Part shown: positions 293 to 1,835 of the stretch, one piece after another
How the letters are laid out: each line of letters opens with the position of its first letter
Numbering within the stretch: position 1 is the first letter of the stretch
UHGV virus genome: UHGV-0177491
Length of the DNA stretch: 40,781 nucleotides
From: a virus
Strand: one strand, 5' to 3'
The notes under the pieces: generated by a model
The model's database searches: none
Told to the model about the DNA's origin: nothing
The model's input: only the letters and a program-made list of their open reading frames with translations
Position numbers and translations under genes: made by a program

Positions 293-338
293 GCTCTTTA
301 AACAACGTCGAACACTCGACTACGTGGCTGAAAAGCCA
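293..338 (+). promoter_or_regulatory. nutL-like site (boxA plus boxB hairpin)
   Basis: boxA-like GCTCTTTAAACAA at 293-305; boxB-like hairpin TGGCT-GAAAA-AGCCA at 325-338 with a GAAAA pentaloop as in lambda boxB. Located between the putative PL and the N-like gene. Confidence 0.6.
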
Positions 339-436
339 GATCACCCAACCACATAAGCTGTGGGATGCAATGCCGAAGCAACCGTCTCAGGAGGGGCTTC
401 GAGATTGCATCGCCAAAGTTTATTCGGGAGGAATCT

Positions 437-709
437 ATGTCCAGAAAAACAGAATTTAAAGGAACCGCAGCTTCTCGCCGTAGAGCTCGTCGTGCAAATC
501 TGCAAAGTCAGGAGGCGATCAGCTCCGACAAGCTACACAGGCCAACCCCTTCACGAGTGGTCTTGCAATGCAAGCGCAAACCAGCAATGAGAGCAGAAGT
601 GATAACTCTGACAACGTTGACCAGAAAATATGAAGGTTCAACTTGTCTTCCAAACGTAGCTCTTTACGCGGCAGGCTACCGGAAATCAAAACAACTGACA
701 GCGAGGTAA
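437..709 (+). CDS. N: N-like transcription antiterminator (P22 gp24 / phage 21 N type)
   Basis: N-terminal arginine-rich motif GTAASRRRARRA; C-terminus LPNVALYAAGYRKSKQLTAR resembles the P22 gp24 C-terminus as recalled. SD GGGAGG precedes ATG at 437 (track ORF begins at 365). nut-like sites lie upstream and after the cro-like gene. Confidence 0.75.
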   Translation: MSRKTEFKGTAASRRRARRANLQSQEAISSDKLHRPTPSRVVLQCKRKPAMRAEVITLTTLTRKYEGSTCLPNVALYAAGYRKSKQLTAR

Positions 710-712
710 GTG

Positions 713-937
713 ATGAATCAGACATACATTCCATCATGCTTGAGAAATCTGCCAAAGCAGAAAGCAAAGCCCCGCAAGCAAGCCATAAAGGACGCTAAGG
801 CAGAGGTTATTGATCAAGCAATACAATTGCTCAGGGAGGAGTTAAGAAGTGGCAAGCTCGAAGGAATGATGATGCCCTATCAGCGCGGATATCTTTCGGC
901 GATTAGTAAGTTGGAAGTATTGAAGAGTGAATTATGA
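713..937 (+). CDS. Hypothetical small protein (about 74 aa)
   Basis: ORF begins 4 nt after the N-like stop (GTG at 710 or ATG at 713). No recognisable domain. Confidence 0.4.
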   Translation: MNQTYIPSCLRNLPKQKAKPRKQAIKDAKAEVIDQAIQLLREELRSGKLEGMMMPYQRGYLSAISKLEVLKSEL

Positions 938-1001
938 ACTATCTGGAATTTCCGGATGGTTCATTGTTTTGGCAGCAAACCACTTGTTTGAGGACTGATA
1001 C

Positions 1002-1244
1002 ATGAGAGTAAAAACTATGGGCGTAAGCCCATTAAGTGGTCGTATTTTTCAAGGAACATTAAACACTGAAAAAGGAATGTGGGTAGGAAAGAAAGAAGAT
1101 GTAACCGAACAGGCAGTTAAGGCAGTAGCTGAACACATGATGATAAAAGGCCAGAAATATGCATACGGGACGAAGGATGGCAAATGGCTGATAATAAGCC
1201 ATCAAGTGGTTGATAAATTACCAGAAGATTTTATTGCTGATTAA
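1002..1244 (+). CDS. Hypothetical protein (80 aa)
   Basis: ATG at 1002 preceded by GAGGA; occupies the ral/sieB position between N and cIII. No family recognised. Confidence 0.5.
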   Translation: MRVKTMGVSPLSGRIFQGTLNTEKGMWVGKKEDVTEQAVKAVAEHMMIKGQKYAYGTKDGKWLIISHQVVDKLPEDFIAD

Positions 1245-1372
1245 AATTATTTTGGCATAAATAACAGAATAAACACAGCACTGTGTATTCATTCCAACGA
1301 GTGAATACACGGAGCAATGTCGCTCGTAACTAAACAGGAGCCGACTTGTTCTGATTGTTGGAAATCTTCTTT

Positions 1373-1399
1373 GCCCTCCAGTGTGAGGGCAATTTTTTA
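1373..1399 (+). terminator. Intrinsic terminator (tL-like) in the early-left operon
   Basis: Hairpin GCCCTC-cagtgt-GAGGGC followed by aaTTTTTTat. Confidence 0.65.
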
Positions 1400-1418
1400 T
1401 CTGTGAGGATATGAATAG

Positions 1419-1787
1419 ATGTCAAACATCAAAAAATACATCATTGATTACGACTGGAAAGCATCAATAGAAATTGAAATCGACCATGACGTAATGACAG
1501 AGGAAAAACTTTACCAGATTAATAATTTCTGGTCAGGCTCTGAATACCGACTCAATAAACACGGCTCTGTATTAAATGCTGTATTAATCATGCTGGCGCA
1601 ACATGCTCTGCTTATAGCAATTTCAAGCGACTTAAATGCATATGGTGTTGTGTGTGAGTTCGACTGGAATGATGGAAATGGTCAGGAAGGATGGCCTCCA
1701 ATGGATGGTAGCGAAGGAATAAGAATTACCGATATCGATACATCAGGAATATTTGATCCAGATGATATGACTATCAAAGCCGCCTGA
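1419..1787 (+). CDS. Strongly acidic hypothetical protein (122 aa)
   Basis: ATG at 1419 with GAGGA SD; hand count about 21 Asp/Glu versus about 8 Lys/Arg. Lies at the ral position of the early-left operon. No family recognised. Confidence 0.55.
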   Translation: MSNIKKYIIDYDWKASIEIEIDHDVMTEEKLYQINNFWSGSEYRLNKHGSVLNAVLIMLAQHALLIAISSDLNAYGVVCEFDWNDGNGQEGWPPMDGSEGIRITDIDTSGIFDPDDMTIKAA

Positions 1788-1810
1788 GCGCGGCGTTACC
1801 GCATACCAAT

Positions 1811-1835
1811 AACGCTTCACTCGAGGCGTTTTTCG
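1811..1835 (+). terminator. Intrinsic terminator preceding cIII
   Basis: Hairpin AACGCTTC-actc-GAGGCGTT (one G-U pair) followed by TTTTcg. Confidence 0.5.

Follow-up and report, generated by a model that had tools for sequence, protein, structure and literature searches.

The window analysed here, 40,781 nucleotides long, is the genome of a 40.8-kb P22-like podophage and carries a set of elements that we read, with a probability of about 0.9, as the module by which a lambdoid (here P22-like) phage carries out processive antitermination of its early genes, in the VT2-Sakai allele. The module is real but ordinary, as it is already annotated, its VT2-Sakai counterpart is identical, and lambda's own terminators follow it; it is a known, standard type of N/nut module that has been rediscovered and is not new. 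Only its boxB loop is out of the ordinary, with four bases in place of five. The evidence consists of homology, the way the parts are built, covariation, and the identity of the terminators to lambda sequence. Of the components of a lambdoid N/nut system, we find an N homologue, an arginine-rich motif, paired nut sites, a boxB with a constant loop, and downstream terminators, the last recognized at the sequence level.

A preliminary description had proposed an N/nut antitermination system at 293-1835, and its main reading holds: N (PF25694), its cognate nutL and nutR, and downstream terminators are all present. The location is correct for nutL, N, and the terminators, but nutR lies outside it, on the minus strand at 40073-40117. 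The combination of nutL and N occurs in 759 of 5426 complete E. coli genomes, and the module confirms standard N/nut control of early operons in a P22-like phage, which is useful for genome annotation. A search of the accessible literature found no functional data on the VT2-Sakai-type N allele.

The N protein and the paired nut sites

The promoter, nut, and N elements are as follows.
218-246, plus strand: pL-like promoter (TTGACT, 17 nt, TACTAT), driving the early-left operon, from a consensus scan; VT2-Sakai has its annotated major leftward promoter at the corresponding place
293-305, plus strand: nutL boxA, rrn-like, GCTCTTTAAACAA (GCTCTTTA-AACAA), by sequence match
307-320, plus strand: nutL spacer hairpin GTCGA-ACAC-TCGAC, by folding, with compensatory changes in 4 of 5 pairs among 25 variants
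325-338, plus strand: nutL boxB TGGCT-GAAA-AGCCA, a 5-bp stem with a GNRA tetraloop (ΔG -7.1, z -3.95), with covariation
437-709, plus strand: N antiterminator gene, 90 aa, matching PF25694 (N_peptide) over its full length
40073-40117, minus strand: nutR as a whole, by sequence, folding, and covariation; the homologous VT2-Sakai stretch is annotated as nutR
40117-40104, minus strand: nutR boxA GCTCTTTGTAACAA (GCTCTTTG-TAACAA)
40102-40091, minus strand: nutR spacer hairpin GGAC-ATTC-GTCC
40086-40073, minus strand: nutR boxB TCGCT-GAAA-AGCGA

Residues 1-90 of N align with positions 5-100 of the Pfam N_peptide profile (E 3.4e-32), and the protein shares 100% identity with N as annotated in VT2-Sakai and with N in about 47 other phage records. 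The arginine-rich motif that had been noticed in an N-like protein is indeed present, as SRRRARR at residues 14-20 (nt 476-496), and aligns with the lambda RRRERR motif as well as with the P22 and H-19B-type motifs. The N proteins adjoining such nut sites share the constant N-terminal motif M[ST]R[RK]T.F.G..[AS].RRR[AE]RRA.LQS, and their C-terminal domains, lambda-like and P22-like, are exchanged. A PDB sequence search with N gave no match, even at E 10. We also considered whether the protein is the H-19B N itself and rejected this identification, as the H-19B protein has 127 aa and the motif RSRRRER and is only ~40% identical to the N found here.

The two nut sites (nutL, 293-338, plus strand, and nutR) have a common layout of rrn-like boxA, spacer hairpin, TACG, and boxB. 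The former lies ~40 nt downstream of pL, and the latter begins 12 nt past the cro stop codon. That the boxA and boxB matches are chance resemblances without function has a close to negligible probability. Single elements are not rare, with three matches to GCTCTTTA alone against 1.25 expected, and five to GGCTGAAAAGCC, at up to two mismatches, against four expected. However, the 19-nt core TACGTNGCTGAAAAGCNAG common to both sites has exactly two copies, at 321-339 (plus strand) and 40090-40072 (minus strand), against a mean of 0.02 matches in shuffled sequence, with two copies in 0 of 100 shuffles. Both sites also stand on the correct strand in the correct position, their hairpins are backed by covariation (below), and such sites were found in more than 100 viral contigs, mostly as divergent pairs 1.2-3 kb apart; the contigs were searched with a strict pattern, which replaced a looser one whose matches were mostly chance single occurrences. 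The sequence GCTCTTT is present in 25 of 25 nut variants, although it is fixed by the search pattern.

Folding and covariation of the nut hairpins

At both nut sites boxB spans 14 nt: five base pairs form the stem, the last of them a closing U-A pair, and the loop is GAAA, 4 nt long. The elements had previously been given as boxA plus 5-bp-stem hairpins with a GAAAA loop; boxA, both sites, and the stem length stand, whereas the loop has to be shortened, because a GAAAA loop on a 5-bp stem cannot be drawn without a U·G pair beside a C-C mismatch. With a loop of 4 nt, boxB is distinct from the lambda type, a U-A-closed GNRNA pentaloop with the fourth base extruded. The boxB loop is GAAA in 189 sites and GCAA in 3, and the spacer loop varies freely, which is the pattern expected of a protein-read loop beside a purely structural hairpin.

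Compensatory changes among 25 distinct variants lend support to the spacer and boxB hairpins alike: 96.4% of cells are paired and five pairs show compensatory changes, with 48 double-change cells. Slid alignments pair in only 22-46% of cells, and the observed score was reached by 0 of 500 shuffles. For boxB, 100% of cells are paired and the second pair takes three forms, G-C, C-G, and A-U, with part of the stem fixed by the search pattern.

RNA folding of the nut sites, which had been suggested as a check, returns the 5-bp stems as separate hairpins but not a GAAAA loop. In an equilibrium fold of nutL on its own, the form with boxA paired to boxB lies 2.1 kcal/mol below the one with two hairpins, and the formation probability of boxB is only ~4%, which counts against the main reading. 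This boxA:boxB pairing could hide both elements and so gate assembly of the complex. We also considered whether the base before boxA covaries with the boxB 3' strand (mostly G with AGCC sites and mostly C with AGCG sites, with many exceptions) and found it unconvincing as support for such pairing, since it amounts to only two lineage-level associations.

The arginine-rich motif of this N class has no counterpart of lambda Trp18. We tentatively suggest, at somewhat less than even odds, that the VT2-Sakai-type N class reads a true GNRA tetraloop boxB without a flipped-out base and that nutL may in addition adopt the boxA:boxB pairing. Three boxB recognition geometries have been solved, those of the lambda pentaloop, the P22 pentaloop, and the phi21 hexaloop; the geometry suggested here, if true, would be distinct from all three, and the contact with NusA may change. 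No description of Sakai-type tetraloop recognition or of nutL boxA:boxB gating was found in the searchable literature, older subscription papers excepted.

Terminators and distal genes of the early-left operon

Downstream of N, the plus strand carries the following features.
934-972, plus strand: terminator-like 14-bp hairpin followed by TGTTTTGG (ΔG -21.4, z -4.8), just past ORF 710-937
1371-1398, plus strand: intrinsic terminator with an 8-bp GC-rich stem and T6, by scan and folding; one base from lambda ~33925-33952
1419-1787, plus strand: ea10 (DUF2528), between the two intrinsic terminators, by Pfam and lambda alignment
1811-1835, plus strand: intrinsic terminator with an 8-bp stem including one G·U pair, then TTTTCGTT (ΔG -9.9); identical to lambda (1811-1830 corresponding to ~33493-33512)
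1847-1905, plus strand: cIII thermoregulator RNA element and cIII start (RF01804, 88.5 bits)
1860-1985, plus strand: cIII ORF, cut to 41 aa (PF02061)

Two intrinsic terminators had been predicted ahead of cIII, and hairpins with T-runs are found at 1371-1398 and 1811-1835, with cIII starting at 1860. The terminator scan as such shows no enrichment over shuffles (9 found, 7.8 expected), so the case for both rests on their identity to lambda. Homology to lambda begins at ~1250 and stops inside cIII, and the sequence at both terminators, which flank ea10, is about 98-100% identical to it. The one difference in the first, an A at 1392 where lambda has G, lengthens the stem at its base by an A-U pair, and its counterpart in the HK106 record is annotated as a rho-independent terminator. 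The second has a weak T-tract. In sequence and in position around ea10 the pair agrees with lambda tL2a (~33930) and tL2b (~33494), names and coordinates that go back to Luk and Szybalski (1983) and Lambda II, and we take 1371-1398 and 1811-1835, respectively, to be the equivalents of these terminators. Nothing useful on the details of lambda tL2 was found in the searchable literature.

The hairpin at 934-972, which is absent from the preliminary description, is a candidate first terminator after N. In a search of the whole window at the gathering threshold, Rfam returned no family for the nut sites, its sole match being the lambda cIII thermoregulator. By analogy with lambda, the distal early-left genes would be expected to depend on N.

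Hairpins of the pL transcript

Two further hairpins of the pL transcript were considered as processing targets.
345-431, plus strand: long hairpin of the N leader, from just past boxB to the Shine-Dalgarno sequence GGGAGG at 426-431 (ΔG -42.1, z -4.3)
1281-1312, plus strand: 14-bp hairpin without a T-run, 1281-1294 pairing with 1299-1312 (ΔG -21.7, z -6.0)

The leader hairpin is an addition to what had been described before. Its architecture, with a variable apex, recurs in nearly all of 33 distinct leaders, and the lambda N leader is computed to adopt the same fold. In lambda, N is autoregulated via nutL and a structured leader (PMC5725501, citing Wilson 1997 and 2002).

The second hairpin had been reported as a 9-bp stem at 1283-1310, which is real but is the perfect core of a longer, 14-bp structure. 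The suggestion that it is a processing site, for RNase III or another enzyme acting on the pL transcript, is unlikely to hold, even though the structure is very stable and is strictly conserved in lambda and hundreds of lambdoid phages, being identical in lambda and VT2-Sakai and lying in a block with at least 90% identity in 328 of 330 matching phage records. That same conservation leaves covariation uninformative, as the stem is invariant and nearly all copies are at least 90% identical. A stem of 14 bp is, moreover, shorter than a typical RNase III substrate. Lambda homology begins just upstream, at ~1250, and 1256-1290 corresponds to the end of the HK542 immunity-region record, in which the last 13 bases carry the annotation 'boundary sequence 4'; from these two observations, the conservation at 1281-1312 may instead mark a recombination junction. 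In lambda, the RNase III site known for this transcript lies within the N leader (PMC5725501), which also counts against the hairpin at 1281-1312, and the leader hairpin at 345-431 is the more plausible processing target of the two.

The early-right region and the lysogeny genes

On the minus strand, the early-right region contains the following features.
40377-40405, minus strand: probable pR (TTGCAT, 17 nt, TACTAT), placed by eye from cro and the VT2-Sakai annotation
40129-40344, minus strand: cro-like HTH gene (HTH_3), ~90% identical in DNA to VT2-Sakai cro, immediately upstream of nutR
40018-40050, minus strand: hairpin in the tR1 region downstream of nutR; the homologous VT2-Sakai stretch is annotated as a putative rho-dependent terminator of the pR transcript
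35712-35739, minus strand: tR2-like terminator candidate after the primase-helicase gene, from the scan only
30064-30570, minus strand: Q late antiterminator (PF06530, E 1.5e-23)

The promoter scan did not report pR. Q is the distal gene whose expression should, on the lambda model, depend on N-modified transcription from pR. The genome lacks cI, an absence that had been missed before, and cII and cIII are truncated to 41 aa each, so the regulatory logic around N is not fully lambda-like.

Proposed mechanism and alternatives

The working of the module is modelled on the general N/nut mechanism (PMC8632103, PMC3526286), with N binding, Nus-factor use, read-through, and leader regulation transferred from work on lambda and H-19B. 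The pL (plus-strand) and pR (minus-strand) transcripts would each bear a nut site with rrn-like boxA, small spacer hairpin, TACG, and boxB. Host NusB/NusE would bind boxA, and NusA would contact the spacer and the boxB region. The complex would remain on RNA polymerase and carry it past the terminators, on the left the candidate at 934-972 and those at 1371-1398 and 1811-1835, and on the right the tR1 region and the candidate at ~35712-35739. Expression of cIII/kil, the recombination genes, and Q is thus proposed to depend on N. As in lambda, translation of N is probably coupled to RNase III and to the occupancy of nutL, the link being the long leader hairpin that separates nutL from the ribosome-binding site of N.

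The absence of cI and the truncation of cII and cIII raise the question of whether the module is a decaying relic in a phage that is no longer N-dependent. We regard this as very improbable: N is complete and matches a widespread allele at 100% identity, neither nut site is damaged and each agrees exactly with a common variant (23 copies of nutL and 67 of the 46-nt nutR among the fetched loci), essential or late-control genes, Q among them, are still separated from the promoters by terminators, and it is precisely lytic growth that N serves in lambdoid phages.

A different division of labor among the host factors is possible, if rather doubtful, and would refine the best explanation, not replace it. 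As in H-19B, N may act with NusA (and NusG) and have little need of NusB/NusE and boxA, the spacer hairpin serving as a NusA/Rho contact. The spacer hairpin and boxB stem of nutR are identical to those of the H-19B-type nutR of BP-4795, the H-19B nutR is described with two hairpins, its spacer being footprinted by both NusA and Rho (PMC3526286), and the title of Neely and Friedman (2000) indicates a reduced host-factor requirement for the H-19B N. However, the N found here shares only the ~40% identity given above with the 127-aa protein on which the experimental work was done (PMC3526286), and lacks its central ~37 aa. Its boxA, GCTCTTTA, is also nearer to the rrn consensus than the BP-4795 nutR boxA, GCTATTTT, which argues for retained NusB/NusE binding.

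Comparison with known systems

The closest known system is that of VT2-Sakai (AP000422), a type also found in an Stx1-converting phage, Stx2 II, the PA-series phages, ev017, and ev207. The same N and the same nut sequences define this allele, the 46-nt nutR being identical and nutL differing only in the loop of the spacer hairpin, and nutL and nutR both carry annotations at the corresponding places of the VT2-Sakai record. The region of ea10, its flanking terminators, and the 5' part of cIII is ~98% identical. VT2-Sakai is, however, an Stx phage whereas the present genome is that of a P22-like podophage, the genes between N and ea10 (710-1250) differ, the pL operator region belongs to a different immunity type, and cI is absent here. 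The comparison shows N/nut modules moving as mosaic blocks between lambda-like, Stx, and P22-like phages.

The H-19B/933W type, represented by BP-4795, has the same order of boxA, spacer hairpin, TACG, and boxB, and its N has an identical C-terminus, CLPNVALYAAGYRKSKQLTAR. The two-hairpin nut is thus shared, whereas the 127-aa N and the RSRRRER motif (PMC3526286) are not found here, nor is the boxB pentaloop GACAA, in whose place stands GAAA. Since, boxA aside, the nutR sites differ by one loop base, the two systems form a natural pair for a study of specificity switching between arginine-rich motif and boxB.

With lambda the module shares the order of boxA and then boxB, closure of the loop by U-A, a purine-rich loop of the form G..A, the arginine-rich core RRR(E/A)RRA, and a structured N leader. 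The motif of N resembles the lambda motif RRRERRAEKQAQ, and the ea10 terminators and cIII thermoregulator are lambda sequence. The lambda boxB loops are the pentaloops GAAGA and GAAAA, whose fold is that of a GNRA loop with one flipped-out base (PMC12027372), in contrast to the tetraloop found here. The lambda nut sites have no spacer hairpin and a boxA-boxB gap of 8-9 nt, against 24 nt in this genome. Lambda N lacks the N-terminal extension of 9-10 residues, its Trp18 aligns with Glu27 (alignment read by eye), and its C-terminus GKSIPLI recurs in only some relatives of the present N class. P22 gp24, compared via phiKp_30, belongs to the same Pfam family, has a similar C-terminal CLP.VALYAAGYR...TAR domain, and comes from the same P22-like phage type; its motif is TRRHERRRKLAIER where the present N has SRRRARR, and in its boxB, GCGCU-GACAA-AGCGC, the third base of the loop is extruded (PMC12550061).

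The paired nut sites and their RNA structure

The best explanation for the early region is textbook N/nut antitermination (PMC8632103, PMC3526286), to which we assign a probability of about 0.9. The elements at its center are the following:

218-246, + strand: pL-like promoter, driving the early-left operon
293-338, + strand: nutL, GCTCTTTAAACAA-C-GTCGAACACTCGAC-TACG-TGGCTGAAAAGCCA (boxA, spacer hairpin, TACG, boxB hairpin)
437-709, + strand: N, 90 aa, with the Shine-Dalgarno sequence GGGAGG upstream
40117-40073, - strand: nutR, of the same layout, GCTCTTTGTAACAA-C-GGACATTCGTCC-TACG-TCGCTGAAAAGCGA, starting 12 nt past the stop codon of a cro-like HTH gene

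The preliminary description placed matching nutL and nutR sites within 293-1835; both are present, but nutR lies outside that interval, in the early-right operon, which is encoded on the - strand and starts at the far end of the window. A 19-nt core common to the two sites, TACGTNGCTGAAAAGCNAG, is found just these two times in the 40.8 kb, whereas shuffled sequences contain 0.02 matches on average and 0 of 100 shuffles has two; the shorter nut motifs, each taken alone, are not significant in the window.

Each boxB, when folded in isolation, has a 5-bp stem with a U-A closing pair and a four-base GAAA loop. The stem is as previously described, but the loop had been given as GAAAA, a geometry that is one base off because the hairpin is 14 nt long, not 15. 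The lambda boxB hairpins (GCCCT-GAAGA-AGGGC and GCCCT-GAAAA-AGGGC in the lambda record) have true pentaloops, and the known boxB complexes contain pentaloops (lambda, P22) or a hexaloop (phi21) (PMC12550061, PMC12027372), so that the four-base loop is a small but real departure. No description of a four-base boxB loop of this class was found in the searchable literature.

A nut pattern scan of viral contigs matched more than 100 contigs, most of which have two nut sites, one per strand, separated by 1.2-3 kb. In an alignment of 25 distinct nut variants from these contigs, standard pairs are found in 96.4% of cells, with compensatory changes at 5 of 10 pairs (48 cells), and the observed covariation score was reached by 0 of 500 shuffles; in a control that shifted the 3′ partner by 1-3 columns, only 22-46% are paired. 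The spacer hairpin has at least four kinds of stem (GUCGA/UCGAC, GGAC/GUCC, GGUGA/UCACC, and GGCC/GGCC) and freely varying loops. The second pair of the boxB stem can be G-C, C-G, or A-U; the invariance of this stem carries less weight because the search pattern fixed part of it. The boxB loop is GAAA at 189 sites, GCAA at 3, and a pentaloop at none. The three GCAA loops belong to the nutL sites (TACGTGGCTGCAAAGCCA) of loci L126, L148, and L189 on three viral contigs, each with a GAAA loop in nutR and a single N gene with the motif SRRRAHRAELQS. Since one N gene accompanies both loops, the second loop base is probably free, which fits a GNRA tetraloop.

Folding of both nut sites, proposed as a check, gave a boxB that is ~95% probable in nutR but only ~4% in nutL alone. 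In the equilibrium fold of isolated nutL (290-338, + strand), boxA (GGCUCUUU) is base-paired to the 3′ half of boxB (GAAAAGCC), and the two-hairpin form is less stable by 2.1 kcal/mol; support from covariation for the boxA:boxB pairing is not convincing. A paper by Neely and Friedman from 2000 has "alternative NUT RNA structures" in its title, with reference to H-19B. Homology, anatomy, and covariation are documented by the present analysis. As for the textbook mechanism, we infer that N would bind boxB in both nascent transcripts, from pL and from pR, that boxA would be bound by NusB/NusE, and that the spacer and boxB region would be contacted by NusA, with host-factor needs that may be either lambda-like or H-19B-like; the modified polymerase would then pass terminators, allowing expression of cIII/kil, the recombination genes, and Q.

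Terminators and distal genes

The elements that such a polymerase would meet, together with neighboring features, are:

934-972, + strand: terminator-like candidate, a 14-bp hairpin followed by TGTTTTGG
1371-1398, + strand: terminator hairpin followed by T6, one base different from lambda ~33925-33952
1811-1835, + strand: terminator hairpin followed by TTTTCGTT, identical to lambda ~33493-33512
1847-1905, + strand: cIII thermoregulator element (Rfam, 88.5 bits), intact
28509-28529, - strand: tR′-like terminator-like hairpin downstream of Q, 9-bp stem followed by T5
30064-30570, - strand: Q gene of the right arm
~35712-35739, - strand: tR2-like terminator candidate after the primase-helicase gene, with a strong hairpin at 35712-35731

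The two terminators said to precede cIII are indeed both upstream of it and have the lambda sequence; the window is ~98% identical to lambda (ral to mid-cIII) and to VT2-Sakai from ~1250 to ~1950. We take their positions to be those of the lambda terminators tL2a (33930) and tL2b (33494) described by Luk and Szybalski, and the equivalent of 1371-1398 was annotated as a rho-independent terminator by the HK106 authors. The candidate at 934-972, absent from the preliminary description, directly follows ORF 710-937, the first ORF downstream of N, and may be the first terminator after N. On the right arm, a hairpin inside the stretch that VT2-Sakai annotates as rho-dependent tR1, the ~35712-35739 candidate, and the Q gene fit N-dependent delayed-early expression.

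The N leader and the hairpin at 1281-1312

The 9-bp-stem hairpin at 1283-1310, put forward as a possible processing site, exists but belongs, as its core, to a longer hairpin of 14 bp at 1281-1312 (dG -21.7, z -6.0). This longer hairpin lacks a T-run; lambda and VT2-Sakai carry it unchanged, and it is conserved across ~330 phage records. The lambda homology of the window starts directly upstream of it, and the adjoining 1256-1290 corresponds to the end of the HK542 immunity-region record, in which the last 13 bases are annotated "boundary sequence 4".

The N leader (345-431, + strand) is a better candidate for processing. It forms one long irregular hairpin (dG -42, z -4.3) from just past boxB to the Shine-Dalgarno sequence, and nearly all of 33 distinct leaders of related phages have the same fold: the base stem co-varies, and the apex ranges in length from 12 to more than 130 nt. 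The lambda N leader folds likewise. Lambda N acts via nutL to repress its own translation, an effect modulated by RNase III cleavage of the structured leader (PMC5725501, citing Wilson 1997 and 2002); the leader at 345-431 is likely the counterpart of the RNase III-sensitive lambda leader.

Genome setting

The window looks like a P22-like podophage genome that is complete and circularly permuted, with structural genes ~93-95% identical to those of Sf101, Huey, CUS-3, and phiKp_30. No cI repressor gene is found between pR and pL (40406-40781 plus 1-217), and no integrase-sized ORF from the early-left genes to the tailspike gene (7141-9837, - strand). Both cII (39863-39988, - strand) and cIII (1860-1985, + strand) are shortened to 41 aa, the cIII frame departing from lambda past ~residue 32. 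The phage appears to be derived from a temperate P22-like one and to be obligately lytic. phiKp_30 (LC768498) likewise lacks cI, but by a different deletion, and its N and nut sites are of P22 type.

Joining the window ends yields one 22-bp tandem array with the unit TCCTGCACCACCCTGGTGAATC (1-77 and 40577-40781). The ~205 bases at 40577-40781, continuing into 1-35, are a copy (96%) of the part of the O-like replication gene (38776-39546, - strand) that bears the iterons (compared at 39044-39285). This second ori-like iteron set sits between pR and pL, the expected place of cI; it may have arisen by a genuine rearrangement or by a join made at a repeat during assembly. An 84-aa ORF (39581-39835, - strand) is truncated and paralogous to the N-terminal HTH_36 domain of the replication protein encoded directly downstream (87.5% DNA identity over 152 nt). 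The Toprim/AAA primase-helicase (35762-38668, - strand; 968 aa) is broken by an intein-like insert at ~residues 379-631, which matches Hint and LAGLIDADG domains. Both early operons contain several antirepressor-like paralogues of the Rha, KilAC(ANT), and ORF6N kinds (2104-3212, 30738-31472, and 32422-33942), some with near-identical C-terminal segments in common.

The N protein and comparison with known systems

N matches Pfam N_peptide across its whole length (E 3.4e-32), and the arginine-rich motif reported for it is present as SRRRARR (residues 14-20). In N proteins adjoining the scanned nut sites, the N-terminal motif M[ST]R[RK]T.F.G..[AS].RRR[AE]RRA.LQS is preserved, and their C-terminal halves are either P22/H-19B-like (CLP.VALYAAGYRKS..TAR) or lambda-like (GKSIPLI); loci L121, L143, L160, and L178, for example, have this arginine-rich motif and boxB type in common with differing C-termini. 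N is mosaic at the level of its domains.

Identity with the N of H-19B was considered and rejected: that protein has 127 aa and the motif 12-RSRRRER-18 (PMC3526286), and the H-19B-type N, represented here by BP-4795, is only ~40% identical to N of the window. The BP-4795 nutR shares its spacer hairpin and boxB stem with the window nutR but has a different boxA and a GACAA rather than GAAA loop, a one-base difference accompanied by a different arginine-rich motif. The annotated N proteins of VT2-Sakai, Stx2 II, the PA-series phages, 2G7b, and others are 100% identical to that of the window; N is at least 99% identical in 47 phage records, and the nutL-N block is found in 759 of 5426 complete E. 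coli genomes (query coverage of at least 80%). The VT2-Sakai record (AP000422) annotates "N-utilization leftward" and "rightward" at positions homologous to the window nut sites. The finding is correct but ordinary, since the N/nut module is already known and already annotated.
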